Assembly: GCA_964187785.1 (NCBI GenBank)
Contig: OZ076409.1
Coordinates: 23,004,001-23,068,000 of the forward strand
Direction of reading: 5' to 3'
DNA: 64,000 nt
DNA from: Amphiscolops sp. MND2022
Taxonomy: Eukaryota
A model generated the notes under the pieces. That model was given only the letters and a program-made list of their open reading frames with translations. It searched no databases and was not told the DNA's origin. This document shows, piece after piece, positions 1 to 64,000 of the stretch (positions within the stretch are counted from its first letter, which is position 1; the number at the start of each line of letters is the position of its first letter). Position numbers and translations under genes: made by a program.

Positions 1-208
1 ACTTGTAACGTAGGTGTCTCTTACGCTGAACACTACAAAAGCTTTGACTGCTTAACGAGTTAACGGTTGCCCAGCAGCTACTCTGAACTCAAAACTTCTT
101 AGCTTTTTATTTCTGATGATCGAGAACTAAATACAAAAATACGAAACGAGTGGCTGCGAAAATTGAATGTCCTTATTGGGCCTTACCTTAGCTTTCGTTT
201 TAATGAAC

Positions 209-936
209 TGTAACGATAAGCGCTGGCGCTTGAACCGCAACTTAGAGTGGAGGAATTAGAACAGCAAATATAATCTGGGACCAAGATCTCCGCGGCCCTA
301 GCTCATTTTCCCTCCGAAGGAGCCAGTCCCAAGGTGGGGGAACCGTCTTGTAGGATACTCTCTGGCCTGGTCCTAGTCTGTAACTGCTAAAAGTAACAGG
401 CATCTTGCATGACTCAAGACCACTGCTCAACTAGCCTTTAAAAATCGGGCTGAAAATCGGTGAAGGTTGAACCGTAGTATTGGAGAATCTGATAAAATCG
501 CCAAATTGGATAAACAGATGTTATATAACAGCTCTCGAGCACATTAATTTATCACATCGAAAAATACAACAAGAAATCAAGAGTTCAGAGTCATTTGATG
601 GAAATTGACCTCAGCTTCCCAGCGCTAGCGCTAGTTGCCACACAGGATACCGCAGGAACACTCAGGCGAACATCTGGAACACTGGTTTTCTCTACTGTAG
701 TAACGGATATCTCCTAGAGATGGACACAATACCGTGTTCTGTATGTGTTGGGGACGTCTTTTAGTCGTCTCCGGTGCTTGTTCGTCGCGAGCAGCGATTT
801 CTGCTTTTTTGGGGTGCTTTTTCTGGCAGGTACTTCGTCTTGAGCATGTTTGAGTGCCACGTCAAATTTGAACGAATTTTTGACAAAATTTCTAAACATG
901 TCGGTTGATATTGCTGTACCAGAGCTTGCCGTTACA
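209..936 (-). repeat. 3' LTR of element 1
   Basis: TGTAACG...CGTTACA termini; about 13 substitutions versus the 16057-16784 copy (hand count, ~98% identity). Confidence 0.95.
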
Positions 937-973
937 TCACTCCCCAGGCTCCTGGCTTGTCGTCCCTGGCAAG
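937..973 (-). promoter_or_regulatory. Polypurine tract and upstream hairpin of element 1
   Basis: Minus strand reads CTTGCCAGGGACGACAAG...GGGGAGTGA|TGTAAC directly abutting the LTR. Confidence 0.8.
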
Positions 974-1694
974 CGGCGTCTGGGCTCGTCTGGAAACTGC
1001 ATCACAGTGACTGCTGGGAACCATCATCCACACATCAGGGAACAAGGACGAGTCCTTGTTTTTCGGCAACAATTTTGGTCAGTTTTTGCGGTTTTTCTCA
1101 ACAAAAAAAACTTACTGCCTAGCTACTTGTACAAAACGCGAACGAGGTTTTAGCACCAGCTCGAGAGCTAAAGTTTTCAGCCGGTTAAATCTCGTTTGGG
1201 CAGCCAATTTGCGTAAAAACTTTATTTGCGACCAAAGTCAGCTAAAATTTCTTTTCCTAAGCATTTGAAACTTGTAGTCTTCAATTCATTTCTGGCGATT
1301 TAAAACTTTTTTTAGAGCTTGCGGGCTCTTACAGTAAACAACCAAATTGATAAAGAACACTAGACTAGAAAGAAAAATGCAACCAAGAGGGATAAAACTT
1401 CTTTTGATGGTGACAACTCAAAAACACCGCGAACGGTGTGCAACAAAAATAGCAGTTTTCTGAATAATAGTTTCTCTTTTCTTTCTGCTTGGTAGCTCAA
1501 ACCACTGGTGCAGGCGTACTCTATTGGCCGTACACCCAGTGCAACACTAATGGTACACTAATCATATAACCATAACTATGAACAAAAATTGCACTTCGTA
1601 TTGTAGCACCGTTCTGGATGAGAAGTTCTAAGGCACTGTTTTGTTGGCAGTTTTTCGAGACTGGGAGCGCGAACGCTCCCGTTAGCGGCTGGGT

Positions 1695-4600
1695 TCATTG
1701 AGCCGAACTGCGTCGGGTCCGCTCTTTGGTGGTATCATCGGGGGTCTGTTCTGCATTATCAGTCGACACTGACGCTCGACGTCGGGGAGAGACTTCTCTG
1801 GCAACCGTTTCAGAGTCCGACAGATCTTCGGGGAGCGATAACTCGGCGATGGGCTGCACTAGCGCTGCATTGGGAGTCAACTCAGCTGCATGCTCTCCTG
1901 ACTGCTGCTGCGAGGACTGAGGACTAGTTCGTGACGATGACGGGCCAACTGGTTCTGGCTCCAAGTTGTGGGTTGGAAGGTTAATGGTGATCGGTTGAGA
2001 GATGGGCCGATCCAAAGACATCGCCATCGTTGACGCGAGCATGGTAGAGGCGAACGCCTGTTGTCTCGCTATTTCCGCTCTGCCTTCCACGGCTAATGCA
2101 ACTCTGCGTGAGATCCACCCAGGTTGGCTCCAGAGCTCGCAAGCTCTGTTCCATTTAGGGAAGCTAGCAATCTCCAACTCCAGACAATACTCCTCCCATC
2201 TTGCTCGTTCTGTCGAGCCCAACACAGAATTGATCTCATCATGTTGGACAATGGACATATCTCCAGACATGGTCATCTTTCCTTGGGGCTTCCACGCCGA
2301 CTTCCGGGGGAATGGGATAACACGGGATTGGAGATTTCGTTGTCTGATCTGAGCAGCGCCTTCAATCCATCCTGGGATTTGGGCTGGTTCCAGGTGCTGG
2401 ATTTGACGGTTGAAAATCTCAGGGGCGCGTCCAACGGGTTTCGCCCTTGGCCAACCCAACGGTTCCTTCCAATAGCGGTTTGAAAAGGCGATGCATTTAA
2501 AACAGTATAAGGGGTCTACAGGTGGACCAGCACTAGTGCTGGCGCGGATCGCCTTCCTTATGAATTCCTGACTCCACGGGAATCTGAAGGGGACTCCTTC
2601 CAAACTGAGAGGTGCGGAGTACCAATTCACAGGGCCATGTTCTCGAGGCAGAGGGCATGCTTTCCTGGTGCGCGCGCGCAACAAACCCATCAGGTTTTCC
2701 TCCAGCTCCCTTTCAGACTTCAGGGTCGTATATCCATGCGGCACTTCACCACTCAGCACGGCATGTATTACTCTTGGATATGCCAGTGAGGAACGGCCTC
2801 GCAGATAAGTGCTAAATGAGACCATGTGTACTTGGACTGCTGTTGCTAAAGGCTTGGTAGGGTATCGGCACACGCCCACTGCGCCAAAGATGGGGGCCAG
2901 GACGGGAGCCATGGCTGCCACGAAATCCTCTACTTCAGCTAGGGTGAGATCAGCGATCTGCTGCGGCAAGGGGAATCCTGCCGTTTCTCGTGGGATTTGC
3001 TGGTCTGAGTTGTGTAGTGGCTGGGACTGGTCCACACCCACGAATAGACCGGAGGCAAACACCAAGGTGGAATACAGCCAATGCTGGATCGACGCACGCA
3101 TGCGCTCCAACTGGGCGGAATAATCTTGTTGGTCCTTTGAGGTCATTAAATGTCCCCAACGGGTCAGGCTGCGCAGTTGTCCTTGTGCTAGGACCAAGTA
3201 ACTGTAGAATACGGTGAGGTCGCAGGCAATCACGATGTCGACTAATAGTGCTAGTGGTCCGGCTACAAACTTCGTTGGACCCATCGCTAGCGCGAGCGCT
3301 AGTATTTCTCCGACAGTGGCCTCTCCAATGGTTTCTAGTAGCTTGTCTGTTTGCGTGGGGGTAAGCGAAAACTCGGAAGTTATCACTTCAAGGTTCCATC
3401 CCAGACCAAGACTGGTGCAGAAGGCTTCCAACGGACAGTTGAGCTCTCGAGCTACTTCTGCTAGAGTCCTGGCGGCAAACCTAGTTTGGTACCAATAGGC
3501 ATAAGTGGTAGATGCGGCGTCGACCTCGGCCTTCAGATTGGTTGCTTCAATTGCCACGATGCACTGCAGTCCTACGGACAGCTTCACGGGCTCGATTCTT
3601 GAGGCGAAGTGGATCTGTGGAATTGTCCTCTCAACGGTGCGCGCTGCAGGCCATGCACCGATTTGTTTTGTCAGCTCGGCTAGCTCTGCATGCACTGGGA
3701 TTTCTTTGTCCTTTCGCACCAGCCAATTGTAACGACGAACAGCCTCTCGTTCGGTTACGTTTGACTCTCGGGCGATGCGGTTGCCGTCGAGGTCGAAGGC
3801 CATTCTGCCCATTCGCATTCCATGATCATAGAGGATAGCGTCGTCAATGGTTAACTGGGCATTTCCCGAGCGTTCTATAGCAACGAGCGCTCTAGATACA
3901 GCGGCAAAGAAGGCTGGATACGATAGGGTATCTGGGCGCAGGTCCTCTCGGTCTACACGCAGGTTTGGTGCACAGATAGCGAATTCGACTCTGCGCGCCT
4001 TGCAGACCTCCAGCAGAATGTAAACAAACTGCTGCAGGCTTCGTGGCCAGTACATAAATCCTGGTGGGGATACAAAAAGCGCGAGCGCTCCCAAACGACC
4101 CCGAAGGATCCCTGCGGCACGTTCCATTGCACCGACAACCTCATTTACTAAGGCTGCAATGTCTCCAGGTCGTCGGACATCGGACATTATGGCGTCTAGA
4201 TCACGCAGCAACCCTTCGCAAGCCATGTGATCCAGAAGGTTGGCAAAGATCACGCGCTGTGGGGGCGGCTTCTGTGATCCTCTTAGGTTTGGGTCGTATA
4301 TGGCTCCAACCATCTCAGCGATCTCAGCGAAGCGAGACAGGGGCATAGTCAGTACCAGCACGTCGGGCATCAAGTTGTCAATAGGCAGATCACTCCGGCA
4401 GGTAGAATCGACTGCCATGTAGTAGCGCGCGCGCTGCAAAGCTGCTTTCAATAGGGGCTTCAGAGATCTCAGGTTGCGGGCGTAGCGGGCGTTCGCTTCC
4501 CAGGTCTCACCTTCTCGCAACACGTACCGTGCGGGGAACTGCTCGGTGATGTTATGTTGCAGGGGTGCCATGTAATCGTTAGTCGTCGTGGGCAGCTGCT

Positions 4601-5999
4601 CTCGAGCACGCTGTTCCCAAGCCTGCTCTGACATGTCTGCGTCACGGGGACGCAGCGAACGCGTGACCTGCGCCGGAATTGTGGTTCGATTAATTTCCTT
4701 TTGCTCCGTCTCAGTGGGAGGGGTCCTCTTCTTTATAGCACATTGACTAGGGTAAAGGTGCTCAGCGGCCATCCAAATGCGTTTGCTATCATTTGTGACT
4801 ACTGAACCAGATACGTCATCAGAGGGAGGAAGGAAGGCTGGAGGGCGGGCCTCCTCTACCGTCTCAGGTATCTCCAGGGACATATCTATTGGATTCGTGC
4901 CCGAGGGCACAGAGCTCACTTCCGAGCCTGCATCCGAATCTCCATACTGCTCGATTGCGTCCGCTAGAGACATCTGAGGCGCGCCTCGGCCTAGATGACC
5001 CACTCGGTATGGAGGCCTAGGGATGACTACACTTTTCAGCTGGGGTCGAGGTACATCAGCGCGTTTGTCGGGAGGGGGACGACTAGTCGGGCTCTCGGTT
5101 ACTGAGCCAGCTGGGGTGATTGAGGCAGTTTCTTCGGTGAGTCGCTTTCTCCCGGCTTCTTCTCGTGCGCCAGTAGCAGCGCTTGCGCTATTGCTTGGTC
5201 CAGCAGCAATTTCTACATCCATAGATGCTGTCTCGACTAGAGGAGCAGGAGGATCACAGCCCGAGGGCTGAACGGCAGCTTGCAGATAAAAGGCTAGTCC
5301 AGGGATTCTTTGCTCTACGGCACGGACAAAATCGGAGGAGTTCGGATAGTTGGCCACTGCTTGTAATGCCACAATTACGGCCTGTTCGCTGGTACTCCTT
5401 CCAGTCAGCTCTGGGTTTGGTATGGGTGGCAACCGGGACCCCGAGGGCTCCCGATCAGAGACTGGTGCACAAGTTGTGGTTTGCAATACCATGTGTGGCG
5501 CTCGGTACGACGTCCCAAAGGCAGGCGAACCGGAGTAGGTCGGCGTCATTGGTACTGGTTTTGGTGCTGGTGGAGGCAATGCGACCATCTGATGTGGTGG
5601 CATTGTTGCAACGTTGGCAGGCACCATACACAGGGAAGCTTCTTGCTCGAACCTCGTGCCCTGGCTGGGGCCAAGCATTGTGGTAGATCGTTCATCTAGG
5701 AATTGATTCGTCAAGTCGTCGCCATCCCAAGCATTGTTCTGGCAGGTTAGCGTGCGACGGTAGCCAGCTACTTCCGTCACCAGAGACACAGATACACCTG
5801 GCAGCGTCTGCATCGTGTCTAGTTGAGTGAGCAGGGCGGCCACTCCCGCTACCGCTAACGGTGAAAGGCCGTTCCTCAATCGCTCTTCTACATATTGGAC
5901 TTGATTAGTCCTCTGCGCTCGCGCAGGCAATTCTTGAGACCTATTGCTATGAGGTCCCGTCGTGGGGATAGGCACCGTGTTGTTGGGGTAACAAGCCAT
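1695..5999 (-). CDS. 1434-aa uninterrupted extra ORF at the env position of element 1; unknown function, possibly with an inactive SGNH/GDSL-like domain
   Basis: Long ATG-initiated ORF between pol and the 3' LTR with low-complexity P/S-rich termini. Central segment VIFANLLDH...LFVSPPG...EVCKARRVEF...DLRPDTLSYPAFFAAVSRAL loosely resembles SGNH-fold blocks. No evident signal peptide. Confidence 0.8.
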   Translation of the reverse strand: MACYPNNTVPIPTTGPHSNRSQELPARAQRTNQVQYVEERLRNGLSPLAVAGVAALLTQLDTMQTLPGVSVSLVTEVAGYRRTLTCQNNAWDGDDLTNQFLDERSTTMLGPSQGTRFEQEASLCMVPANVATMPPHQMVALPPPAPKPVPMTPTYSGSPAFGTSYRAPHMVLQTTTCAPVSDREPSGSRLPPIPNPELTGRSTSEQAVIVALQAVANYPNSSDFVRAVEQRIPGLAFYLQAAVQPSGCDPPAPLVETASMDVEIAAGPSNSASAATGAREEAGRKRLTEETASITPAGSVTESPTSRPPPDKRADVPRPQLKSVVIPRPPYRVGHLGRGAPQMSLADAIEQYGDSDAGSEVSSVPSGTNPIDMSLEIPETVEEARPPAFLPPSDDVSGSVVTNDSKRIWMAAEHLYPSQCAIKKRTPPTETEQKEINRTTIPAQVTRSLRPRDADMSEQAWEQRAREQLPTTTNDYMAPLQHNITEQFPARYVLREGETWEANARYARNLRSLKPLLKAALQRARYYMAVDSTCRSDLPIDNLMPDVLVLTMPLSRFAEIAEMVGAIYDPNLRGSQKPPPQRVIFANLLDHMACEGLLRDLDAIMSDVRRPGDIAALVNEVVGAMERAAGILRGRLGALALFVSPPGFMYWPRSLQQFVYILLEVCKARRVEFAICAPNLRVDREDLRPDTLSYPAFFAAVSRALVAIERSGNAQLTIDDAILYDHGMRMGRMAFDLDGNRIARESNVTEREAVRRYNWLVRKDKEIPVHAELAELTKQIGAWPAARTVERTIPQIHFASRIEPVKLSVGLQCIVAIEATNLKAEVDAASTTYAYWYQTRFAARTLAEVARELNCPLEAFCTSLGLGWNLEVITSEFSLTPTQTDKLLETIGEATVGEILALALAMGPTKFVAGPLALLVDIVIACDLTVFYSYLVLAQGQLRSLTRWGHLMTSKDQQDYSAQLERMRASIQHWLYSTLVFASGLFVGVDQSQPLHNSDQQIPRETAGFPLPQQIADLTLAEVEDFVAAMAPVLAPIFGAVGVCRYPTKPLATAVQVHMVSFSTYLRGRSSLAYPRVIHAVLSGEVPHGYTTLKSERELEENLMGLLRARTRKACPLPREHGPVNWYSAPLSLEGVPFRFPWSQEFIRKAIRASTSAGPPVDPLYCFKCIAFSNRYWKEPLGWPRAKPVGRAPEIFNRQIQHLEPAQIPGWIEGAAQIRQRNLQSRVIPFPRKSAWKPQGKMTMSGDMSIVQHDEINSVLGSTERARWEEYCLELEIASFPKWNRACELWSQPGWISRRVALAVEGRAEIARQQAFASTMLASTMAMSLDRPISQPITINLPTHNLEPEPVGPSSSRTSPQSSQQQSGEHAAELTPNAALVQPIAELSLPEDLSDSETVAREVSPRRRASVSTDNAEQTPDDTTKERTRRSSAQ

Positions 6000-6285
6000 T
6001 ATATCATAGGTCTAAAAAGGATTACCGTTAGGCTTACTAGGTGCATTATGGGGAGAGCTTAGGGCTCATCATCCAGTTACAATGGTGCAAAGATGGCTCC
6101 ATAAGGGAACCGCAACAAGTTTAAATTGTAGTTCAACTAACTAACTAGAACATAAAGATAGGAGTTATTTAACGATACATTACAAGTTAATCATTCCATG
6201 GGATAGTTTAAGACTTCCTCCCAGACATGACAATTACCGGGGTGGAGAAATTAAGTAGGGGCAACAGAAAAGAGCTTTGGGCAGG

Positions 6286-7752
6286 CTATTCCGGCCCTAT
6301 GCTCAGAATGGACACGTACACGCGGTTGTGTAGCACCACGTGAATGCCAGTGCCCTCAAGCAATTTCGTTAGGGTGTGGTACAGGTTCACCAATGAAAGG
6401 GCGGGTCGTTCTGGGTCCAGTATAGGTAAGTGGACCCTCGTGGATCCTTTCTCTATCAAACGCTGTATCAAGTGTGTCATACAACGTAGGTAATCGTCGG
6501 TGAGCAGCGGCGCACGCTGGTTTGCTCTAATTATCAGTAAGTGAATACTCTGATTGGGGTTTGGGTTGATATCAGAGGGAATGGTGAGAATTTCTCCCAC
6601 CTTGGGACGTAGAGAGAACACATTCTCCTTGCCACACTCCCGTAGCACGTACCGTAGGGCGGCTGAGTTGGTCTCTAGGTCAGCGGGACACGCTAACACC
6701 ATATCACCTTCTACTTGTAGAAAAAGAGTCACATCATATGAGAGGTTCTCGGTTGGGGCTGGATACAGAATTCCCGGGTAGATAATTTCTCTCCCCGGCC
6801 CATTGTCGGCAGGTAAGCATACGCGGGGCGTACGCCCCTGGTTTGCAGCCAGGTCTTGCCACACCGAGCGTGGCATCGCTCGATTATCACTCCTCGCTTT
6901 GACCCAGGTGTCCAGGGTGCTTAAAGCGGCTTTTGGGGAAAGCGGAATTTCGAAAGTGTGAGTCCACTCGTCCAGCAATCTAATGCGAGGATAATTGGTG
7001 AAACAAGTGATGATCAGTTCCAACCACCACGCGAACTTCACTTTGCCACGATACCAGTCTATAATGTGGAAGCAAAGTATCAAGTCCGCAGTAGTGAGTG
7101 TCCTCAGACCTTCCAAGCAGGACAGCAGGTGCAGTGGTTCCACTATTGCCTCCACTCGTGGAGCAGTAACCAGCAACCACCAGTGCGGTGCTGGGCTGTA
7201 TACTCCGCCCGGGTCTACGTGAATTCCGTATTTGTCACCGAGAAGATCAGCGGTGATGCATCGGACCATTTGCACAGGTTCCCGCTCGAAGTTGAATGGT
7301 CCAAACGCGATATTGCTGGGTACTGGGGGCATCACCGTGGCAAGGGTAAACTCAAACCCTTTTCCGTCGCTAGTCCACTCCTTGAATCGAGGACATGGAG
7401 CTTTTGCTACTCCAGGTGATGATAACTTCTCCAGAATAGTATCCACGGGATAGTCTCCGTATCGTTCCAGGGAGGAATAAGTCTTTTCAGCTCTCACTGT
7501 AAGGCGATGCACTAGATTTTCTCCCCGCTCCGGAGGAACTCCCCGGGCTCCAGTGGGAACCCTCCGGTTCTCATTGACGGCTAGCAAGCAGACACAGTCT
7601 CGCAGCCCACGGGTCCCGCATTTGTAGCGTGGCTGCCGCCTGCTTCTCAACTGGTATCGAGGGACTTCAGAAGCCTCGGTCGTCATTGCTGTTTCTGATG
7701 GCATTGTTGTTGTTATTTCCTTCTTCCTTGTTCTTGCCTTCGCTCTGACCAA
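6286..7752 (-). CDS. Macrodomain-like (TARG1/OARD1-type) ORF downstream of integrase, probably the frameshifted C-terminal extension of Pol
   Basis: LACPADLETNSAALRYV...RPKVGEI...IHLLIIR...LRCMTHL...GSTRVHLPILD...GTGIHVVLH follows the TARG1-type pattern. An upstream segment (RCITADL...WLLVT...LSCLEGLR) may be a second degenerate copy. Confidence 0.6.
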   Translation of the reverse strand: MVRAKARTRKKEITTTMPSETAMTTEASEVPRYQLRSRRQPRYKCGTRGLRDCVCLLAVNENRRVPTGARGVPPERGENLVHRLTVRAEKTYSSLERYGDYPVDTILEKLSSPGVAKAPCPRFKEWTSDGKGFEFTLATVMPPVPSNIAFGPFNFEREPVQMVRCITADLLGDKYGIHVDPGGVYSPAPHWWLLVTAPRVEAIVEPLHLLSCLEGLRTLTTADLILCFHIIDWYRGKVKFAWWLELIITCFTNYPRIRLLDEWTHTFEIPLSPKAALSTLDTWVKARSDNRAMPRSVWQDLAANQGRTPRVCLPADNGPGREIIYPGILYPAPTENLSYDVTLFLQVEGDMVLACPADLETNSAALRYVLRECGKENVFSLRPKVGEILTIPSDINPNPNQSIHLLIIRANQRAPLLTDDYLRCMTHLIQRLIEKGSTRVHLPILDPERPALSLVNLYHTLTKLLEGTGIHVVLHNRVYVSILSIGPE

Positions 7753-8288
7753 CCGTTTTCGCGTTTTGGGTGGTCTTCCCCTCCCCTTTTGAGAGAAGGA
7801 GCGGTCCCCGCTCCGGGCAATGTCGTGGGAAGAGTAGGCACATTGGACTGAACGTCGTCATCCTCGGTGGCGGACTTCAGAGGGAGTGAAGGAGCGGCCG
7901 GCCAAATGGGATAGTTATTGAGGAAACTCGTCAGTGATGGATTTGTCAATAATGGGGCTGACATTCCCAATAAGGAGGACTGTTTTTCGGGAGAAGATAT
8001 TTGTGGTGACGGAGAGCGCGCACGCTCATGGTCTGAGAATAGTTGAGGTAGACGATGGGTAGGTGATATCGATTGATCTGCAGGGGATTGGGGGACTTCG
8101 GGTTCCCTACGATCAGCATCAACGGGATCAGGAGGTACCGGCAACATGATTTCGGATAACTCATCGTCAGTGCCCGAGGTCGATTAGTCGAACTGCTGGT
8201 AGTGCATGCGGGAACCCCCAGCACGCAACTTTGTGCGTAGGCGGGTATCCATCCAATGGTGCTTGCGCGAAGGCAAGGATACGTCAGA

Positions 8289-9663
8289 TTATTGTTCAGT
8301 TTTATATGAAGGCTGAGACTTATCATCATCAACCACATCGATGGAACGTTCAGGGTCAGGGTCCATGAGCACCACTATTTCGCCGCTGTCCGCTTGCGCG
8401 GCGGCGAGCTCAAGGGGCCCACTGTGATGAGGTTTCAGGCGCTCAAAATGAACCTTTTGGCCTGTGTCCAACACGTAGACACGTCCTTCTTGGAAGACCT
8501 GTACTACTTTGTGCGGGCCACGCCAGGCACGCATCAGTTTGGGGGAGCCTTTTTGCGGCACATAGCGGCAAAAAACCCAGACAAGCTCTCCTGGCTGGTA
8601 GGCCCGTGCCCGAATAGCACAATCATACTTCAATTTTTGGCGTAGCTGGGCCTGGTGCGTATTGCGCCGGACCAAGTCGTGAATTTCTTGTTGGCGAGCC
8701 AACACATGATCCACATACGCTTCATGCGTATCAAAGGACTTGGCTGCAAATTCAGGGTACAAAAAGGTGAGGGGGATTGCTTTCTCAACACCTCTAGTCA
8801 ACATGTAGGGCGAGAAGCCAGTAGTGGCGTGCCTGGTAGAAATATAGGCACCAATCACTTCATCCAAGCACTGGTCCCAGTCGCGCATACGGCGCCAGCA
8901 AAAGACTCGTAACAAGGTTAAAAGGGTGCGGTTTTGTCGTTCCACCAAACCTTGAGTTCGTGGATGTCCGGCGGTGGAGGTCACTTTGGTGACGTGAGCT
9001 GCCTTCAAGAACTCATTGGAGACTTCAGCAGTAAGGTTTGGAGCATTGTCTGATTGCATGCGAGTGGGAGTGCCATGGCGGGCAAACCATTTCTGCAGCA
9101 GCAATCGTGAGGTGGTCACTGCGTCATAGTCGTGGTCTACAAGAGACTGCCTCTGCAAATTTGGAAAAGTGGTCTATGATGACCAGAATGCCGGTGTTGT
9201 TATTATCAGAGGGGCAGATTTTTAAGTGGTCATACTGGACCAGCTCGTTAAAATAGCCACTCTGGATGTTTTTCAGTTGAAATCGTACGTCACCAGGTTT
9301 GTCACGTACTTGTTGGCAGGTGAGGCACTGGCCGACGTATCGACCGACACTGCGCCGTATGCCGGGCCAGGTGTGGCGCTCTTGAATTCGAGCTACCACT
9401 TTTGAGATGCCTTGGTGTCCCATTGCGTCGTGCGCACGGAACAGGATTTCATGCTGGTATAGTTGAGGCATTATAATTATGCACGGACGTTCGTGCAATG
9501 GGCGTTGGGTGGGTGAGTATTGCACGCAAAGGACATCCTTCTTGTTTATGAACAAGAGGTCCTTTTTCTGGCGAAAATAGTTACGTGCGAATTCTCGCAC
9601 GTTCTCGGGAAACATATCGTTATCTAGGGATTCACACTGCACGAGCTTTTTCAGTGCCAGCAC
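8289..9663 (-). pseudogene. pol: Gypsy integrase, frameshifted near 9140
   Basis: H2C2 zinc domain (HDAMGHQG...CLTC); catalytic core QYDH...IIDHFSKF / QSDNA...QGLVERQN; C-terminal WRGPH motif; split across ORFs 9124-9663 and 8289-9158. Confidence 0.93.
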
Positions 9664-11021
9664 AGGACGTCACGGTTTTGGGCTCCGCGCTCCGAAAACC
9701 CCGCTTCACTTGGATCCGTCGAAGACAAAAACTCAAATTCAGATGAAGAAGTCAACTCAGAAGCAGTGGATAGATTCATTTCACTGTACACTTTATAAAC
9801 AAAATTTGCTCGACCGTTGTCGGCTTCAGTTTTTTGGTCAGTTTTTGTAGTAGCATCCAGATTTTGGGGCACAGCCTGGTATACTAAAGACACAGGCACT
9901 ACCGTGCCCAGGTGAGCACCACATCGTACACGCTTCTGGTTGCTGGTGAGGTTTATCAGACTCACGTACAATGTTCCTGTCTCACTGACAGTGGCCACGC
10001 TATCCTCTAAAAAGATGGTATTTTGCAATGAGGGATCAGACAACGAGGCGTTAAGCGCCACGGTCTGGAAAATTAGTGGTTCAAGCGCGTCGGTGACAAA
10101 TTTACCCTTTGCCACTGTACGCTCGAACGGCTGTAGGACCAGGTCACTGTCCAGAGCAATGGGAGTAGTTAGTGAAGCGTCCTCGTGGTAGGAACGGAGG
10201 AAGTTTCGACCCAGCAGAAAGTCCTCCACACCCATTGCGTCATCTACCACGACAAAATTGGTTTCGAGTTCATACCCTCCCAACTGGAAGCGAACCTGCT
10301 CAGCTAACCCGAAAGTCTTTATTGTCTTCCCATTGGCAGCGTACAAATCAATTTGATAGGGCTTCAGGACCGCACCGGTCCGTGCAGCTACCCGATTAAA
10401 GGCGGAGAAGGTTAATATGGACACCCCGGAACCAGTATCCACCAAGCCTCGCAGTGGGATAGGTGCCGCATGGGGCACCACAAAGGAGACAACAAGCGAC
10501 GCACGCTCATCTATCCGCGCTTCTCTGGTGGGTTCTTGGTGATTGATATTATAGCATTTCAGCTCTTGAGGTCCCAAGCATAAGCCGGGTGGGATTACAT
10601 CTACCACCACGCAAGCCTCGAACTTCACGTCCACGCCGTCCATCGTTGCACAGACTGGTACCGGAGAGTACGTAGTCAGGGTCTCTGACTCTCCAGGGAC
10701 GTACCACTGCTTTGGGCGGGGCAACTCCATCCGTTTATAGAGGATAGATAGCTCAACCCAGAGTTTCGCCAAGGTTAGCGTTGGTCTACGCACCTGCTCG
10801 GCTGCCAAAATCAGATGAATCGAGATCAACGTTCGCCCCTGTGGATCGAACGTGGTAGGCTCCAAGCACGTTTGGATCTGCTTTGCTCCGCATGTAACTA
10901 TCAGTGGGGTATGAAACGCTGGAGGTTCTGCCGGGTGCAGCATTAACACACGATCATCCTCCAGGGGTTCGGTGTGGGCGGCAACACCAGCGGATTCCAC
11001 CTCGGCCCATCGATTCATCAT
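9651..11021 (-). pseudogene. pol: Retroviral-type aspartic protease region, joined directly to integrase
   Basis: LVDTGSGVS active site and FLLGRNFL motif; no YxDD RT or RNaseH motifs before integrase. Confidence 0.88.
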
Positions 11022-49124: not shown

Positions 49125-49180
49125 TATTATGAAATTTTAGTTTACTAAGATATCAGAGGGGAAAGCAAAAAGTTTGAAAA

Positions 49181-49369
49181 TTGAGCTGCTGGGTACTGCA
49201 AGAGTAATCGGTCTAGAATAATGAGGAATTTCTTTTGGATTGTTTGAGCTGCTGGTTATTGCGATTGTAATCAGTCTAAATGATGGAAGAATTGATTTTG
49301 AATTGTTTGAGCTGCTGGTTATTGCGAGAGTAATCGGTCTAAATGATGGAAGAATTGATTTTGAATTGT
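49181..49369. repeat. 63-bp tandem repeat x3 just upstream of the SET gene
   Basis: TTGAGCTGCTGG...GTAATC.GTCTA...ATTGT at 49181, 49244 and 49307. Confidence 0.9.
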
Positions 49370-52905: not shown

Positions 52906-53400
52906 CTTAGTTGAACAATTTGGGACCATGTGTTCAATTCCCCCCAGGTACACCTTGCTGCGAATTTCCCCCCCGAACACGAAAGCACATTTTGTTCTTG
53001 AATAAAAATATTTCACTAGTAAGAGAATATTATATGAAAGTATATACTCAGAGGGTTGCCTCTACAACTGTTTGGACTCTTCAGGTAAAAAAATTACCAA
53101 AATGTTTTGATATTATTATCCAAAATAGCAGAAATTTGCGTTTTAAACAAACTAAAATTGTATAAAAAGGCCCCGAATTCAGCGCAAATTTTGTCCGCTA
53201 TAAAATCAAATTAGCAACTTTTAAATGACAGTCAATGTAATGGATAGGATTATGTCGACATCAATTATTATATTGGACCAAAATTTCAACGCAAACTATG
53301 TCGACATAATGGTTTTTGAACCTTCTGTCTTATTTCCTCCCCCCGCCGCAGTTTGAGGAGGGCGGAATTGAACACATGGTCCACAATTTGTTCAACTAAG
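52906..53400. mobile_element. MITE-like element with ~36-bp TIRs
   Basis: CTTAGTTGAACAATTTGGGACCATGTGTTCAATTCC vs GGAATTGAACACATGGTCCACAATTTGTTCAACTAAG; TSD not resolved. Confidence 0.7.
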
Positions 53401-53603
53401 TAGGTATCTTGTCAACCTATTGTTGATCATTGTTCTTTTAACCGCTACCACATTGCCCCGCCGGCAATTGACGGTTGGGAATTTCCATTAATATACTAAT
53501 ACAAGTAGTAAAAAGAACAACTAAATTTGTTTATGTTTATTTGGTACAGTTGAAGTCATGCGCTGATGGAGCAATGGCAATGACGTCCCTGTACTTCATG
53601 AAG

Positions 53604-56600
53604 TCAGACTGCAGCCAAGGCCTGACTTCGAAAGAGCGGGTGGTGAACTTTTTTTCTGTAAGGCTCCATTCTGAAACAGTAACATGCAGTCGTAACATCT
53701 GGGAGCAAGTGTCTACGGGAGGGGAACCATTGGATGACTTGGAAATTCGGGAGCATACAAATTGAAAGAAGATTTTTTTGAATGCAGATTTTGGACAACG
53801 ATTACTTTGAAGGTGCAACTTCCTTTGAATGCAAAGGTACCATTTTATTCAAAACCAATTACCTCTTCGGTGGGTTCGGAGCGGCTGCGGAGTGGCTGCA
53901 ATCTCTCGAGTGACCAAGGTGAGACTGTGTACGGCCTCGCAGAGATCTTCTTCATCATACGGTGGCTGGTTGCATGGGGGGATGGCTGGTTGGAAATTGG
54001 AACCGACCATGATCATCGGTTTTCAATTCAGGACAGGGGCCAAGTTCGTTTTCTTCAGGGAGACGGTCAAGAAACTTCCTCCTGAATATCGTTCCTTGCT
54101 TGGCTCCTCGTCGAACACAGCCATGTTGAAGGCAGGGAACACCTGTAACAAACACAACTTTTATCTTAACAATTTTATTGGGACCTAAATACTATTGAGA
54201 TACTGTCAGGATACATATCTACCCCTCGTAAAATTTATCAATTTTGGGATTGCTCACAACAACAAAACAACGAGCATGTTTGTTAGAATACTTACTTCTG
54301 TAGTGGAGGCTTCTCCGTTCTTCATGTGTTCTGCTACTTTTTGGAAGAGGTGCCTGTACTCATCACCCAAGTAGTTGGGGCGCAGCTTGCGGTAGTTGTA
54401 CAGCAACACACTCCACACTGTCGTCAAATCGGGATATCTGGAATACATAAATATTATACTCAAGGTAACAATTTACAAGAGAACAATTGGTGGAGGGGTG
54501 GTAGATGTGACACTTATAATGTTCTATTGAGTATGCATTAATATTTCCCAACTTCAAACTTATGTTCCCTGACATATTGCTCCCGGAGTCGTTACAAAAC
54601 TTTCTGCATTGTTTAATGTCCTTCACTTTCTCGTTTCAGCTATATAGATGGTAAAGGAAGTATAGTGATGTTGTATATTTTCTATATATAAAACTTTACC
54701 GCGTATCTTCTTCAATGTCGAAGTGGGCATCCACAATTAGTCTACTGTGCCCAAAACTCAGGAAATTAGCACCGAGTGCCATTGAGTCGCCGTGGGTAAG
54801 GACACAGTGAATCCACTTTGAAGGCAGAACAATGGCATCACCTGCCCTTGCATGGATCCTGTGACAGCCCCCCTCTAACGTCTGCAGGTCTCCAAATGAT
54901 GTTGTTCTAAATATCACACATAAAAAACACAAATGAGGGGTTTTGATAGAATTCAGTTGAGTGTTTATTTTCAGCATTACCCGAAAAATGACAATTTTTT
55001 TCTAAAGAGATTGTCTACTTTCTATACACTAAACGAACATAGATTTTAGGGAAATGACGTGAAGTAGGATGTTTATACTTACAGGCTGCGAGGGTCTTTC
55101 TCACTGTACTGCTGAAAGAGTTGCAAGTTCTTCTTTGTTGGCTCAACAAGCCAGAAGATTTTCTCACCGAGCAGTACCACGTAGAAAACTGACGTGCTTG
55201 CGAAATCAATGTGCCACGGGGTGACACATTTGTCGTTGGATAGCAGCAGGTAGTTCCACGTGCTCTCCGTCAAGTACTCATCGCTCTGAGAACCTGCCAG
55301 ATTTGACTCAACATAGCGGTCGATTGCAGCATTTCGTACCGCAGTAGGTGGTGAAAACATCTAAAAACGAATGTACTTAAACTACCTAAAATGTGAAAAT
55401 TGATTTCTTATATCTTAAGAAGAAAATTTCGCAGAGTCGTTTACATATGGGATTTGGGCACCTATAAAAATTGTCAGTGACTTTCAAAGGTGTTTAAAAA
55501 TTATTTTTTTTTCACTTTACTGTTTAACTAGTTTCGATTTTATCTAAATATCTCATTACCGCATGTTGAAGGGTGGCATCTAGCACGTTGACAGGAAAGA
55601 GTCCTTCACGGGCTGCTTCTGGGCCGGAACGCTGTTCCGCCAGATTCTCCTCTCTGGTCAAACTTCGTATCTGCAAATACATTTTGTACTCTAGTTCAAA
55701 TGATTTTTTGTTGAATGTGAAAACGCAGTAGAATTGAGACAATAGTGACTAAATGTTGCGAAGAATCTACCACTGGATAATAAAACATTGAAAATTTAAT
55801 TTGAAGGTAGTGGTTCATGATTTTAAAGCTACACAAAATTTACATTTTTTGTGGATTCTTCGCAAAAATGTGATTTGAACAATTTTGTTTTGGCTGCGAG
55901 AACGCAGTAAAAATGGGACAATAATGATAAAACACGTTGCGAAGAATCTACCACTGGATAATAAAACATTGAAAATTTATTTTGAAGGTAGTGGTTCATG
56001 ATTTTAAAGCTACACAAAATATACATTTTCGTAGATTCTTCGCAAAAGTATGATCTGAACAATTTTGTTTTGGCTGCGAGAACGCAGTAGAATTGGGACA
56101 ATAATGATAAAACACGTTGCGAAGAATCTACCACTGGATAATAAAACATTGAAAATTTAATTTGAAGGTAGTTGTCCATGATATTTCACAACGATACAAA
56201 TGAAAACTTTTGCGGATTCTTCACAGCGATAAATATACGCGTTTGTGTGCGTGCTCTTAAATCCAGGAAAGTTTTTCTGTAAACCAACCGCACTTTATAG
56301 TTTAAAATCTCACCTCGTTCACTCTGGCCGACTTTGCAGAAATGGGGACATCCGGGTTGGCAACATGCTGCAACAAATGTCCTGCTAGAGGCAGAAACTG
56401 AGTTGCCTTGTCCTCCGGAACATGGGGTATGACGAGGCCTTCTGCGTTGTCCCTGGCACCTCTCCACAAGATGGGGAAATCATGGGCCAAATAACAGAAG
56501 ACTTTCTTCGTCTGATCTTCCACGGCCGCATTCCAAACAACGCACTTTGGGACGGTGCTCTGACGCGTCCCCTCGATGTGCTCGTAGTACCTAAGAACAA

Positions 56601-57460
56601 AAAACAACTACTTTTTTCCTAGTACAATTAAAGGTCTTTATTATTCTGGCACGGATTAAATATTCATTTTTATCTACCTATAGGTATGAAAAGGTATTTT
56701 GACATCTGTTGTATTCTGGTAAGGTCAGCTATAGTTTTAACAAAAAAAGTATTCTATTTGACTTTCATTTCTTTCAAACTTGCAATAACATATTATGCCA
56801 AATAATACTTGAGTACTCTATGTATTCTGTAGCATAGCTATCAACTCGAGTTTCCCTCACCTGTAAGTGCCGTCCTTAGCCGACTTTCTGGGGAACCGGT
56901 AGAAGTTCATGTCCTTGAACCTATGATTCGGCACTCGCTCCAGATTGCACAGCAGATTGCTCCGGGAAGAAAACTGCTGTTCACAGCCCTCACAGCTGGT
57001 TGGCTTGAGTTTCCCCGTTACAGTCTCTGGAATAAAAGAAAAACTTCAAAACAACTTCAAAACATGGGCGTTACGTTTCTATACCGCAAGCACAACTATC
57101 AAACTATCATTAGTTTCTCAAAAGTGTAAAAGATACTTGTAACCATATATAGCAAGACCGTTTCTCTAGGCAGGTTTGTAATGACATCGGTAACTTACTG
57201 TAGTTCTTCAGAGCTGGGAAAAGACCTTGAGCCAATTCACTTGCCCTCTTGGCACAGCTCTGGGTCTGCTGATGACGTTTGAGGGCATCTTTTGTCGACA
57301 CAGGTTGTAGACACAGGTTGCAAGTGAAGCTACCACTTCCGCTGGCCACCTCCGGCACCGGCTTGGATCCTTCGCATTTTTGGACGTGTCTGTTGTAATT
57401 GAACAACCTGGTCGACTCATAAGGGCACTTCGGACACTTCATCTGGGGCTTTGGCGGCAT
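53604..57460 (-). CDS. Multi-exon C2H2 zinc finger + JmjC (KDM2/KDM7-PHF8-like) gene; exons 1-7 intact, tail possibly decayed
   Basis: Exons 57460-57199, 57026-56861, 56590-56314, 55670-55560, 55360-55083, 54906-54700, 54437-54296, 54142- are phase-compatible. TPWHIDFASTSVFY...GEKIFWL and LPSKWIHCVLT...GANFL retain H-x-D...H and the 2OG lysine. In-frame TGA at 54023-54025 in exon 8. Confidence 0.88.
55720..56225. repeat. ~180-bp tandem repeat x2.8 in a JmjC intron
   Basis: GTTGCGAAGAATCTACCACTGGATAATAAAACATTG at ~55755, 55936 and 56116. Confidence 0.93.
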
Positions 57461-58371
57461 TTTCTGGTTTATGAAAAAAATTATTTTAGTTTTTTTAATT
57501 TGTTTCCTTATGATCTGTTTCCATATTTCCTTACATTTATCGCGCTCATGGAGCCGTTACAACCACCTGGCTAAACATTAACTTGTTGTTCTCTATCCGT
57601 TGCGCACATGGAGTTGTTACATCAAACTAAACATTTGTTTTTAGTCCTGTTGTCATCCTGCTCATGGAGTCGTTACGAGGGATTCTCAAATAACATATGA
57701 GCAATTAGCATAAAAAATAGTTTCAAATAACATAAAATTGAAATGGGTTTCACTGGACATAAAAAGAAAATTGTTTGCGAGAAAGTTTCAGTGGTCAAAA
57801 GCATTCAAAAATCAGAAGACTCCCTGAAAAAAGTGTGGAAATTACAGATTAAATTTTCTGAGTTCGATTGTTTAACCGGGTATTCGGATTTATTTTTATT
57901 TGAAACTAATTGCATTTTTATGTTATTTGACTCTAATTTTGTTTTTATGCTATTTGCACTTATGCTATTTGGTACGTAATCGTTATTTGAAACTAATTTC
58001 TTTTTGTACTGTTATTTGTTCATGTTATTTGCACTTATTTTCTAAACATTTGTGTTATATCTTATTTTCATCGCGCTCATAGAGTCGTTACATCTGACTA
58101 AATGTTTTTTTCATGTCCTATATTCATCGCGCTCATGGAGTTGTTACAAATGGCTAAACGTTTTTTAAACTGGAACAGCTGCAAATTTTGGGACGGCAAA
58201 GCTTTATTGTACCAAAAATAAAACCTGACTTACCTTACTCGAAGATTGAATTTGATTGTTCAAATTGAAGTTCTGCAGTCTTCTTGTTATGTTCAGATTG
58301 ACGACTGATTGTCCGCAGCAATGTTTGTTAAATAACGTTATTGAATAAAGCGAGGGATTCCGAACACCAAT

Positions 58372-58692
58372 TTCTGCGCGTCATGGTCACGTGACAAAAA
58401 GTTCATCTAATTCCAAGTACATGTAACGATTTTGGATCAAGCGAGGTATTTTGTTTACGTGACTCACTCAATTCTGCGAGTCATGGTCACGTGATAGAAG
58501 GAAGAATAAGAATAAGAATGAAATTTTAAAGATTTGGAAATTTTAGAGATTTGTATAGAGCGAGGGAAGAAATGAGTGAAAAAATGAATGAATTCACGAA
58601 GAAATTTCAATTTCGTAAATCTTTTTACGAACCATGTCGGGACTGAACGAAATTTTCATCGACCGGAACCAAAAGATCTGCTGTGACGTCAT
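58372..58692. promoter_or_regulatory. Candidate promoter motifs upstream of the JmjC gene
   Basis: TTCTGCG.GTCATGGTCACGTGA (E-box) twice, 100 bp apart; TGACGTCA at ~58684; possible 5'UTR intron ~57464-58232. Confidence 0.35.
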
Positions 58693-61600
58693 AGGTATAT
58701 GTATTGCATTAACTGTAGTTAACGAATGACTTCGTTCGCTCACAACAATACAATCTATTTGAACGCTCCTGCAGTTGTTACAAAAAAAACACTTTTTAGA
58801 AATGTTTTAGTTTTAAACTGGTAAATGTTTTAGTAATAAATAATATAGGAATGTTTCATTACAATACGCTTTTTTAAAGTTGGCAAAAAGGGGGGGCATC
58901 TATTTTAAACATTCTACCTAAACGCTCCTGGAGTCGTTACAAAATTATTTGTTTCATTACAAATTTGTATTTATTTTAAACATTCTACTTAAACACTCCT
59001 GGAGTCGTTACGAATTTTTTATGATCAGAGAGAGTTTACGCAATTTGTTATACAGGGCAACGTATTTTTTACATGTAATAATACGCGCACAAAACTTTAT
59101 ATATGTGTCCAATGTAACGGCATAATGGGGGGTGGCGCAGTTGATAGTTCCCGTGTGTATGTAGTGGAGCTTGATGCGTTGTCTACCACTTATTCGATCC
59201 CCACCCATAAACTTCCAGGTGATTCGATGCAGACTACTCTGCATTCCCTCCTCCACTGTATTGATTGAGCAGAAGAGTGTGTTCCGCTTCACAATGATAG
59301 CAAGAGCCCGCATGGAAGGATCACTGAGCCACTGCATCCCTTTTGATGCACGGGACAAATAGAAAGTTTTTTTATTTTGACAAACATGGGGGGTATTTAT
59401 TTGAAACTTTCTACTTAAACAATTCTGAAGGCGTTACAAAATCATTTGAACCATTACAATTTATAGGAAGTTTTTAGACGGCAAACAGGGGATTTACATT
59501 CTGAAAACCATTTCAAATTATTCAACAAAATAATTCATATACAAACGGAAGGATCCACAAATTAATTTTCTTTCGTTGAATTATTTTTGGTTGTGAATTA
59601 TTGGTTGTGAATTATTGGTGGTGAATTAATATTGGTATTTCGGTGAATTCATACGAAACGAAGAATCCACAAAAATATAGTACCTCCAATAAGTGACCTA
59701 ATCAACGAAGAATCCACGCCAACTAATAATTGCTTAGTGAAGAATCCACACAATTTCAAGAATCGAGAGAAACGAGAGAACTTTCATTTTGGCGATTCTT
59801 CGCAGGTTACACACGGTATTAGTGCAAGAATCCAGAAAAAAATTTCACTCCACTTTTGTCAATTCTTGAAACGCATGTGTTATAATGCAGTTCAAGAATC
59901 CACATAAGACTACAACAGATTTGTTGCAGTCACCGTTTTTCCCCGATTGGCGTCGTAATGGATATTCCTTTCTTTCAAACGTGAGAGTAACATTGGCCAG
60001 CAGCGAAATTGTGAAGTGCCATCGGGGACAAAAGTCGAGTCCGAGAAATCACGTGAACAGCAAAAACCATCGGAGAGGTCAGACTTAACACTTGGTACGA
60101 AGGTACATTGGTCTATGGAAAAAAACTATCCACCCAAAATCAACTTATCATTCCTGATGTGCTGCCTGATGACATGTTGGTTTTTCTGCAAGGCAGGACA
60201 AAGGTCCCTATTAACAATCTATACAGAACACGTGTCAAACCTGAACGGTGTTTACCAACTCCTCCGGACGAAACAAAGATGGGACCTTATCATGACCAAC
60301 AAATGGCAGTTCTATCAACTCTGAAGCATATCGCAAGCTCATATGACCATGTAGGCACACGTGAACTGCCAAAGACCCAACTGAGCTCAATATTGCCAAT
60401 TAAAGTCAGTTCAAATATCCCTGGAACTCGAAGAAAGGATCATGTGAATCACGGTCTCTTGAGTTAATGAATTCGAATTCTCTTGAAAACTTACGGTTAG
60501 AAACACTCAAACAATCGCATGATGCCATCGCTGAGTTCAAGCGCATTGTTCACGAGGGACAACATTGTTTAGATATAGCCGCTGAGGTAACTCACCTAGG
60601 TGATGAAATGTCTACGGAATTCGCCCAGCAATTGACAGTCATGAATCATATAGATAGACAAGCATTACTTTACGAACTCGAGTTGCTCGATAGGTTGATT
60701 CAACAATTGCAATACGAGCATCTTAGACGAACTTCTGCCAGAAAGCCGCAGTGTGATGATTGTGGGTCTCATTGGCGTCTCAATTAGACTTGCGATCATG
60801 GACGCCATCAGTTACTTGACAATTATCTCAACAAAACAGTATCATTGAAGAACTTCAGTTCCAACCTGCACCCGGATCCGAGACTCTGGTGCTACCCACC
60901 GATTACAAAATTCTGGGTCCCGGCGTTGATATTGTCCTCGCAGACATCTGACCTGAAATACACAATGCCACGCCTTCGACATGAACGCCAGCTACTTAGA
61001 CTCAAACACAGGAGCTCCGCGGGCTCCTCACTTAGAAACTTCGACCATCACGTTTGTTCAATTGCGGCCAAACGAATGTCATGTTTCCTTTCACGCAGAG
61101 AAAAATCCGCATCAGCATATGTTGCATCAGCATCAGCATCAGAGAAAATGTTGCATCAGCATAGTTTGCGATTTTGCTTTGACGATCCATCTCATATTCA
61201 TTTGTTGAATAGACGTCATTCGCAGTCTCGAATGCAATGGTTATGTGCGAAAGGCAACAAAATACCTACCACTGATGTTAGAAATACTCCATTCCGCGGT
61301 CACATCTCTATCGTGCAACTACGGATGACTGATTAAGTTCTTGCAAAATCAAATCTACCTCACCGACAACTTTCTCGGCAAAGGGGGAGAGGGGGTGCCC
61401 TCAACCCCAAATTCATACTTTGACAATTCTTCATTGACGTATCTGTTGACTTTGGCTAGCTACTCTCACTTCCCTGGAACACAGTCCTTTTTTTCAACGT
61501 CTTTCTCAACGTCTTTATCAATCTCGGTTGCTGCCAAGTCTATCGAAAGTAACATCTGCCAAACGTGGTCTACACCAACTTTATCACATTGACCCGCAGT

Positions 61601-62958
61601 TCTTCATAGCAGGATTGAATGGTAGGTCAAACAAAACTCGACTCACTGGTCACAGACGCGGTTGTCCACCACGCTTGGTCACCAAAACCCTTCTATCAGC
61701 ATGGTGGAACCGACCAAAGGGTCATCGACGTGGCCGCCACCCAAACACCTATCCTCTGTGAGACTAATCACTCTCGATTTTGTCGACAACCAAAAGTAAT
61801 CATTGAGAAACGGGGTTAAATGATTAAAGTCCGGGGAATCCCAATGGAGAGAAGACACCCTGGTTTTCCAAAACCCAAGTTGACCACCCACGGAAGTTGT
61901 CACTACTTGAGGTAATGAATTCTTGACTTTATGTTATTATCACTTGACTCTGATGGTTGCAACCAGAACTTCACACTATAACTTTTTCTCCCAGTTATTA
62001 ATTAATTTAACGGTTTAATGCTATCAGTAAAAATTGATATCCAAAAAATCTCAATAGTACAAGATCGGCCAGAAAAGTCGTCTTTGACACATTATTTTGT
62101 TGGCGCTTTTTCTTCATATTTTTTTGTTGTTGGTTTACTCTGTAAATCCAGTCCCGGAGAACTCAACTTCAAGTCATTCAGTAGTTTTTCTATGATGCTC
62201 AACGGGATATTTCGTGTTATGGAGCTAACGAGGTCGAAGTTCCTAGATTGCAGGAATCCATCAACCTTTCTTGCAGTGCTCTTTCGCACAAGCGATTTGG
62301 TAAGTTCCTTAAAAGTTGCTACGGAACTGAATACGGGTATGGAGCTAGACAACAGTGCGTGTTGCCCAAACCAAGCCGATTTTTTGACAAAGAAATGTCA
62401 AAAAAATTTTTGGTTTCCTTCTAAACAGTGGTTTTTCTGCTGAAAAGAAGTTTTACTGTAAACAACTTCAAACTGTTCTGCAAAGTGAGTTTTTACTGCT
62501 GTGGAAAAGAAGTTTTGTAATGAAACCGCACAACGGAGCCTCAGGTCACCAAAAGAAATTTTAATTGCAAAAAATTCATTTTTAATTGCAAAAATGATGC
62601 AAAAAATTCATCACAGAGCTAGCATGATCTTTTTCGAACTCAGTGCAAAGAACTTGTTCCAACCAAATGATGCTCTTAGATTGACATGGAGAATTATGAC
62701 TTTGAATTGTTTGAAGGTGCATTTTGGAGTACTTGTCGTCCAGCTCAAGAGCTAGCTCTGTTTCAACAGTTAGTAGACGACGCTGATGGAAAGAAACAAA
62801 ATCTCAGTGTTACCCAAACAGCAAAAGATGATAGTGCATTTGTACTCTTGCAGGATCATTAGTTTGAACTTCCAATGGATTGCAAGATGATGTGGGGATG
62901 TGTTCAACACCAGCTACCCCGCGTGACAGGGATGTCATGCAAAAAGTCCGAGGAGTGA

Positions 62959-63568
62959 TGTAACGGCACCTTCTGGTACAGCAGATTCAGTTGATATTGG
63001 AATTTAGACTTTGGACAAGTCAAGAAAATTTTTGAAAAATTCTAATTCGATCTTTGACGTAGCACTGAGCATGTGACTCCTTTCTACGAAATTGGCTGGT
63101 ACTTCGACAACAAAGAGCAAGAACAAGTAAAAACATAGAGGCAGCCTCTAGAACAGACGCCAGAGACTGCAAAAAAACTTGAGCGAATCTGGACGCAAAA
63201 AAATTGCGAGCTGAATCTGGACACTGCCAAATAATTGTGATCGACGAGATTGTTGCATTTTGTTGTGATTTTATGGCTACTTAGCAATTTTAGATATTAT
63301 TCCCTAAGTCACACTGAATGACGAAATTTACATTTATGCTTTCTTTCGGAATGTTTTCAAAGTCTAACTAGGCGGCGGTTCCGAAAACAAAGCGAAATGC
63401 CCGTTATTGTTAGCAATAAAAGATTGGATAAAGCTGGCGAGGGCTCCTTAGGAGACGAATACCCCCTCCTGACGGGACAAATTTTAGCTGTCCCGGGCAA
63501 ACACCCATGTCATAGGTTCCTCCTTCTCTATGACGAAATAACGACAATGGTGAGAGCTTTTCGTTGCA
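62959..63568 (+). repeat. 3' LTR of element 3
   Basis: Preceded by PPT GAGGAGTGA; TGTAACG...CGTTGCA termini; followed by TAG. Confidence 0.8.
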
Positions 63569-64000
63569 TAGCATCTAAAGAACTCCATAGTCGTGATGGC
63601 TCAAACTTTTACATGTTGCAGGTCTGTATACGGGATAACTTTTTATGAAACCTAGAAATTTCAGTAAGCCCCGATGTTAAATATTGTTTAAGAATAGCGC
63701 CGCAGTTTCCACTAGTCAAATTAAAATTTGTTTCACTTGGTTACCGACACCACGATCTAATTGTTTTTACGCTTTATTTTCTCCATTCATCTGTTGTGAG
63801 AAAAAGCTTTGCAAATAGCACGCTGAAGTTGACACTAGTCTGTTGTTTAACTTGTGAGTGAATTCAATTTGTAATAAAATGTCGGTGAAATGATAATCTC
63901 TCAGATGTATATAAATGTGGAACTGCTTCCAAATGAAAATTGTAAAACCTAAAGTCTCATAATTGCCGCAAGCTGTCAAAACAGCTTAGCAACAATCAAA

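Follow-up and report, generated by a model that had tools for sequence, protein, structure and literature searches.

A lineage of Ty3/Gypsy retrotransposons in the genome of Amphiscolops sp. MND2022 is flanked by target-site duplications (TSDs) of 3 bp. This duplication is real, found throughout the lineage and beyond chance: among the 72 insertions from six related families (F1 to F6) with both outer ends readable, 64 possess an exact 3-bp TSD. A Gypsy lineage with a 3-bp TSD appears to be new, while 3-bp TSDs in LTR elements as such are already known from Troyka. The analysis goes back to a window, i.e. a stretch of 64,000 nt (assembly GCA_964187785.1, contig OZ076409.1, positions 23,004,001-23,068,000 of the forward strand), in which three LTR insertions with 3-bp repeats at their edges had been noticed and attributed to a Gypsy integrase with a 3-bp stagger. 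All six 3-mers were found at the stated coordinates, and the elements are all members of a single, abundant lineage of Ty3/Gypsy. The insertions had been regarded as independent. This holds for the events, which are separate, but since the three insertions share one lineage, they do not represent three independent origins of the 3-bp trait.

Element 1, a member of family F1, lies between two copies of AAC (206..208 and 16785..16787), the right one within a decayed LINE endonuclease region. Its 3' LTR (209..936, minus strand) and its 5' LTR (16057..16784, minus strand) are both 728 bp long and 98.2% identical to each other, the former running from TGTAAC to GTTACA. A polypurine tract (~937-950) adjoins the 3' LTR, and a primer-binding site for tRNA-Arg(TCG) (16026-16041) is separated from the end of the 5' LTR by a spacer of 15 nt (16042-16056), both on the minus strand. 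The broken gag-pol frame (6289..13550, minus strand) encodes a PNMA-like capsid, a CX2CX4HX4C knuckle, a protease, an integrase and a C-terminal tail. It contains several frameshifts and stops, and in comparison to other copies approximately 2 kb including RT-RNase H have been lost near 9684. The integrase core with the clade-specific residues (8958..9053, minus strand) exhibits an alanine two places past the second catalytic aspartate and the sequence GHPR where most Gypsy elements have YHPQ, and the GPF/Y-type motif WRGPH is located at 8511..8525 (minus strand). An extra open reading frame of 1438 codons, ORF3 (1695..6011, minus strand), has no assigned function. It is present in F1, F4 and F5 and missing from F6. 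A search of Pfam and of the Atlas returned no family or match for it, and its predicted structure, of low confidence (mean pLDDT 53.6), had no PDB match at E≤0.001.

Element 3 belongs to the non-autonomous family F3 and is flanked by TAG at 36185..36187 and 63569..63571. Its 5' LTR is a remnant (36188..36605, plus strand), of which the 3' part has been deleted together with the primer site, and its 3' LTR (62959..63568, plus strand) is directly preceded by a polypurine tract. This short element spans 27 kb because it harbours a nested element of 20.5 kb (39494..59960), which is bounded by terminal inverted repeats (CATTA…TAATG) and has GA|GA flanks. In elements 1 and 3 the predicted junctions, AAC|TGT…ACA|AAC and TAG|TGC…GCA|TAG, sit at genuine LTR termini of their families, and the match of the flanks stops at 3 bp without any extension to a fourth.

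The situation is more complicated for element 2, a member of the non-autonomous family F2. Its left ATA (19999..20001) is followed by the 3' LTR (20002..20732, minus strand), and a primer-binding site with a 16-nt spacer (24064..24095, minus strand) adjoins the 5' LTR (24096..24837, minus strand). The right ATA is present at 24918..24920 as predicted. However, the presumed 'CCA' edge at 24917 is not the end of the LTR but lies 80 bp past it, as the LTR of this family terminates with GTTACA at 20732 and 24837. The intervening 80 bp (24838..24917, minus strand) comprise a polypurine tract plus its upstream sequence, are identical in 78 of 80 positions to the sequence adjacent to the polypurine tract, and end with CA. 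As CA followed by ATA is expected by chance with a probability of only about 0.0013, element 2 is probably a real insertion and its right edge probably an abnormal, extended cDNA end, which is nevertheless flanked by a 3-bp repeat. In addition, a 1.84-kb tandem duplication (17500..21177, 99.5% identity) copies the left junction and the LTR. Element 2 was excluded from the tally of TSDs.

This tally comprises copies from the window's own genome, taken from the best-scoring matches listed and selected irrespective of the TSD. Since it is based on best-scoring matches and the copies of F4 to F6 were picked for long open frames, the sample leans towards young insertions. The TSD lengths are mostly 3 bp and not 4-5 bp: exact 3-bp TSDs were found in 15/15 insertions of F1, 13/16 of F2, 13/17 of F3, 15/15 of F4, 4/5 of F5 and 4/4 of F6. 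Two of the 72 insertions have a 4-bp TSD, one of them at a mutated LTR end and thus ambiguous, six show no match, and none has a TSD of 5 or 6 bp. When the flanks were shuffled, on average 3.0 and at most 11 exact matches were obtained in 10,000 rounds. In the young families F4 to F6, whose LTR pairs are 99.3-100% identical, the TSD is exactly 3 bp long in 23 of 24 insertions. LTRs without a fetched partner or with an internal far side, which make up the majority of the 120 LTR loci, were excluded from the tally. The same applies to several F3 loci in conflict with the two-end rule (two of these resembled 3 bp by eye), to four F3 candidates that are full-length but decayed, and to two further copies, one of F4 and one of F6, in which one end was unreadable.

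The same procedure applied to more distant Gypsy families of the same genome gave 5-bp TSDs in all eight copies with both ends, out of ten that were fetched. A BEL/Pao element next to the window has a 5-bp TSD as well. The comparison of filled and empty sites also supports the short duplication. For the LINE interrupted by element 1, it had been argued that excision of the element plus one AAC restores the reading frame. This is locally correct, but since a change of three bases cannot shift the frame, the argument rules out only a TSD of 4 or 5 bp. We identified five paralogues of this LINE that stand in for empty alleles. The fifth stops short of the junction, and all four that cover it correspond to the window sequence minus one of the two 3-base copies, i.e. 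the insertion has added three bases in 4/4 cases.

The classification of the elements as Gypsy, part of the original prediction, was borne out by domain order, best structural match and phylogeny. Full-length copies encode a Pol protein with the order PR-RT-RH-IN (Pfam) and the RT motif YIDD, together with a CX2CX4HX4C knuckle. All six families share LTRs with the ends TGTAAC or TGTAGC…GTTACA and thus TG…CA, and the elements possess direct LTRs, a tRNA primer site and a polypurine tract. The motif WRGPH of the integrase aligns with YVGPF of Ty3. Among the Gypsy features compared, the one that departs is the TSD, which is 3 bp instead of the usual 4-6 bp, a trait that is typical of these elements but not part of their phylogenetic definition. 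Ty3 (PDB 7q5b) is the best PDB match to the RT-RH region (E 7e-74) and to the integrase, both by sequence (4e-25) and by predicted fold (4e-19). According to the accessible parts of the work on this complex (10.1101/2021.07.27.453949), Ty3 resembles the lineage in domain order, TG…CA ends and the use of a tRNA primer but differs from it by its 5-bp TSD. An assignment of the lineage to BEL/Pao was rejected, since a DUF1759 gag along with a 5-bp TSD occurs only in the separate neighbouring element.

In quick IQ-TREE phylogenies of 110 RT-RH and 106 integrase rows, the families with a 3-bp TSD form one clade with SH-aLRT values of 99 (RT-RH) and 100 (integrase). This clade is nested in a long-stemmed cluster of unnamed proteins, apart from the families with 5-bp TSDs. 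The nearest named branch is formed by Gypsy-type proteins from fish and a frog (P0037, P0038 and P0042; NCBI: Pseudophryne, Pseudorasbora, Brachyhypopomus) with SH-aLRT values of 92 (RT-RH) and 97 (integrase) and approximately 38-40% identity in RT-RH. As the trees are midpoint-rooted and cover a subset of the homologues, with neither Troyka, of which a motif scan of 209 RT rows detected no sequence, nor an outgroup among the rows, they show the grouping rather than a named clade. The integrase is 50% identical to that of its Gypsy sister clade and has the same Gypsy neighbours as the RT. Two outside RTs used as queries against the genome returned only the families with 3-bp TSDs, the nearest sister clades being absent from it; one metagenome scan for them yielded a single contig of 5 kb, too short for a whole element. 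Within the lineage, F2 is a non-autonomous relative of F5 and F6, and F3 one of F4 and F1. The LTRs are 717-750 bp and the autonomous elements approximately 15-18.6 kb long. The primer site matches tRNA-Arg(TCG). Of 48 distinct junctions, 47 have it at a distance of 15-16 nt from the LTR (eight short loci entered this count only), in contrast to 1 nt in 7/7 control junctions. The lineage differs from the other Gypsy elements of its genome both in the TSD, 3 bp instead of 5 bp, and in the distance of the primer site from the LTR.

The target sites themselves show a weak preference that is informative on the geometry of integration. Against a background of 63%, A or T is found at the centre of the 3-mer in 54 of 64 sites and at the positions ±4 in 103 of 128 cases. 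Its axis of symmetry is the middle base of the 3-mer (r=0.60). The correlation drops to 0.08 and -0.16 when the axis is moved by half a step and to -0.76 and -0.38 at ±1, whereas offsets of -2 and -4 produce side peaks (r=0.44).

It is established for integrases that a TSD is as long as the distance between both strand transfers, as stated in the accessible parts of two studies (PMC9410886, PMC10045372). It is very probable that the integrase of the lineage makes a 3-nt stagger which is then copied by host repair. The flanks support the predicted stagger in this respect, which is itself deduced from sequence. The cDNA made by reverse transcription would carry a long U5 overhang, which would have to be shortened to the CA. 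On sharply bent DNA, an intasome of symmetric build would then set the 3-nt stagger, the integrase joining one CA end to each strand of the target, three bases apart, and gap repair by the host would copy these three bases to form the TSD. The short families F2 and F3 would borrow the integrase from their autonomous relatives.

Could the short duplication arise in another way? With an AT content of 63% in the flanks, three cases would be weak evidence by themselves, so that chance might produce such repeats, or a true TSD of 5 bp might be hidden by LTR ends set one base too wide. Both explanations are refuted and their probability is virtually nil. A hidden 5-bp TSD requires an outer A and T, which were seen in only 2 of 64 insertions, and is at odds with the spacing of the empty sites, which fits 3 bp; chance is countered by the maximum of 11 matches in the shuffled flanks as opposed to the 64 observed. 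An ordinary stagger of 4-5 nt, from which bases are lost in repair, possibly during removal of the long U5 overhang, deserves more consideration. The unusual spacer of 15-16 nt and the 4-bp TSDs in two insertions would fit such a loss, and a 5-nt stagger minus exactly one base per junction would even give an identical sequence. However, loss should be ragged, whereas the young copies are exact in all but one case, and a one-sided loss would shift the axis of symmetry off the middle base, where it in fact remains. We therefore regard loss during repair as improbable. It is very unlikely that an accessory factor, i.e. ORF3 or the tail behind the integrase, sets the spacing instead of the catalytic core. 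ORF3 is large and the long C-terminal tail provides a weak lead to a macrodomain, but F6, which lacks ORF3, has 3-bp TSDs in all four insertions. ORF3 is thus dispensable in cis, although it might be supplied in trans.

Troyka elements and the Kuafuorterviruses also have 3-bp TSDs with rare 4-bp exceptions, as far as the available text of the two descriptions goes (PMC12440569, PMC11673190), and it had to be considered whether the Amphiscolops elements belong to them or have acquired a Troyka-derived integrase. According to the same partial sources, Troyka shares with the lineage the order gag-PR-RT-RH-IN (PMC12440569), the occurrence of non-autonomous derivatives and animal hosts. Its own features, again as given in the accessible text, are CG…CG ends, a CX2CX8-10HX4C knuckle, I/V/LADD in the RT, no GPF/Y motif, LTRs of 100-400 bp and an internal part of up to 7.7 kb. 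The Amphiscolops lineage differs in its TG…CA ends, its CX2CX4HX4C knuckle, its GPF/Y-type motif and its longer LTRs, and its YIDD and canonical Gypsy RT motifs contrast with IADD or VADD in the Kuafuortervirus supplement rows, which were compared by eye. The integrase, with its Gypsy sister clade and the same neighbours as the RT, speaks against an origin from Troyka. Membership in Troyka was therefore rejected, and this explanation as a whole is extremely unlikely. The 3-bp trait of the Amphiscolops lineage probably arose independently of Troyka.

If the integrase sets the 3-nt stagger, as we favour, its DNA-contacting loops are of special interest. The clade carries alanine for the glycine two places after the second aspartate (Gly in 99 of 100 other rows), glycine or alanine for a loop tyrosine (Tyr in 100/100), arginine for a glutamine (Gln in 92/100) and an insertion of two residues; six clade rows were compared, two of them duplicates. 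The substitutions are present in 14/14 frames of the clade from fetched loci and the window and in 0/10 control Gypsy frames. The integrase core is identical in 135 of the 150 copies listed and thus in at least 135 copies, so the substitutions are not a result of decay. In the accessible part of a study on retroviral intasomes (PMC9410886), the cut strand of the target is clasped by the corresponding residues of MMTV, and the closer the cuts, the more sharply the target is bent. The same source puts the duplication at 4 bp in both PFV and MLV, at 5 bp in HIV-1 and at 6 bp in MMTV. The same DDE chemistry is to be expected in the Amphiscolops lineage, but its 3 bp lie below this range and its target-clasping loop residues differ.

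We tentatively suggest, with considerable doubt, that the changed loops help to draw the two cuts closer together. The fish and frog proteins P0037, P0038 and P0042 retain both the glycine and the tyrosine. A simple link between residues and stagger is contradicted by Ty3, in which the loop Tyr and the Gly are both missing and the TSD is nevertheless 5 bp, and by RSV, which has a glycine at the tyrosine site and yet 5-6 bp. Moreover, this link rests on a single evolutionary origin. It is a plausible, albeit slightly doubtful, interpretation that the lineage represents a second independent origin of a 3-bp stagger, within TG…CA Gypsy elements, and that its remodelled DNA-gripping integrase face and its U5 overhang of 15-16 nt give it a natural intasome whose cuts lie closer together and whose processed end is longer than in the solved complexes of Ty3 and retroviruses that were consulted.

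TSDs of 4-6 bp, named as the norm in the original prediction, are indeed the typical range for LTR elements, but 3 bp was already known from Troyka and the Kuafuorterviruses. The consulted parts of other publications give 4-6 bp (PMC6317226) or 4-5 bp (PMC10886601), and the 2025 description of Troyka, in its accessible text, states 4-6 bp for other LTR retrotransposons and treats the 3-bp TSD together with CG ends as the mark of a separate superfamily (PMC12440569). In maize, a 3-bp TSD is reported for 108 of 43,226 cases, which was ascribed to recombination or mutation; these cases are sporadic, whereas 3 bp is the rule in the Amphiscolops lineage. Our literature search found no Gypsy lineage with a 3-bp TSD, and an earlier record might exist outside its range in Repbase Reports, subscription journals or the Troyka supplements. 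Among the other publications matching '3 bp', PMC10741241, PMC12905397 and PMC10045372 concern DNA transposons, as judged by their accessible parts. Since a true Gypsy lineage with TG…CA ends exhibits a 3-bp TSD, a change in cut spacing need not be tied to other characters and has probably occurred twice among LTR elements. Young copies and families with 5-bp TSDs in one and the same genome offer a natural comparison for what sets the stagger of an integrase.

A practical consequence concerns the annotation of LTR elements. The original prediction that LTR finders requiring a TSD of at least 4 bp would miss such elements is in line with published settings, which include -mintsd 4 and discard candidates that lack a TSD (10.1101/137141). 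The junction pattern of LTR and primer site of the Amphiscolops lineage has at least 2,921 exact matches in the genome, and these would be expected to fail a filter with a minimum TSD of 4 bp, which would bias repeat libraries and the dating of insertions.

The primer-binding site of the Ty3/Gypsy lineage whose target-site duplications (TSDs) are 3 bp long is separated from the end of the LTR by 15–16 nt in 47 of 48 distinct junctions, and in the more distant control Gypsy families of the same genome, which have 5-bp TSDs, this spacer measures 1 nt in all junctions (7/7). Within the window, the spacers are found at 16042-16056 in element 1 and at 24080-24095 in element 2. An LTR–primer junction pattern allowing for a spacer of 14–18 nt gave 2,921 exact matches in the genome, and its reversed control gave none in the same genome. 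The spacing of 15–16 nt implies a long U5 overhang in this lineage. The primer-complementary end of tRNA-Arg(TCG) has 256 matches genome-wide; a large tandem array of tRNA-Arg(TCG) genes is found at loci L139-L144.

At its right end, element 2 continues for 80 bases past the 5' LTR (24838-24917), with sequence from the polypurine-tract side and CA at the end. This extension fits a plus-strand priming event upstream of the normal site; alternatively, a tandem array might have been formed and then trimmed by deletion. The left junction of element 2 is spanned by a recent 1.84-kb tandem duplication (17500-21177; 99.5% identity), which may be either genuine or a product of misassembly. In the genome, two LTRs of element 1's family F1, 18.6 kb apart (L004 and L005), have a common outer flank, which suggests a segmental duplication.

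Element 1 possesses, next to gag-pol, an ORF3 of 1438 codons (1695-6011), which shares 37% identity between families F1 and F4 and which F6 lacks. The search for its relatives yielded 75, all of them unnamed ENA proteins. For the tail behind the integrase (about 6290-6750; residues 985-1139 of protein P0003), there is a weak lead to a macrodomain, with an Atlas score of 0.90 and PF01661 assigned to 14% of the members.

Element 3 harbors a nested 20.5-kb element (39494-59960) with inverted ends CATTA…TAATG and flanks GA|GA, containing fragments that match BRCT, SET and C2H2 as well as a weak JmjC match. It appears to resemble a CACTA/EnSpm-type transposon with captured genes.

The stretches 29147-30177 and 30948-32863 include a run of (CTA)54, a palindromic element of 680 bp that contains 62-bp subrepeats, and a degraded RT region of the non-LTR type. 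Directly upstream of the window lies a BEL/Pao element (L226 1352-3261 / L045 4903-6810) whose LTRs measure 1.9 kb and whose TSD is 5 bp long.
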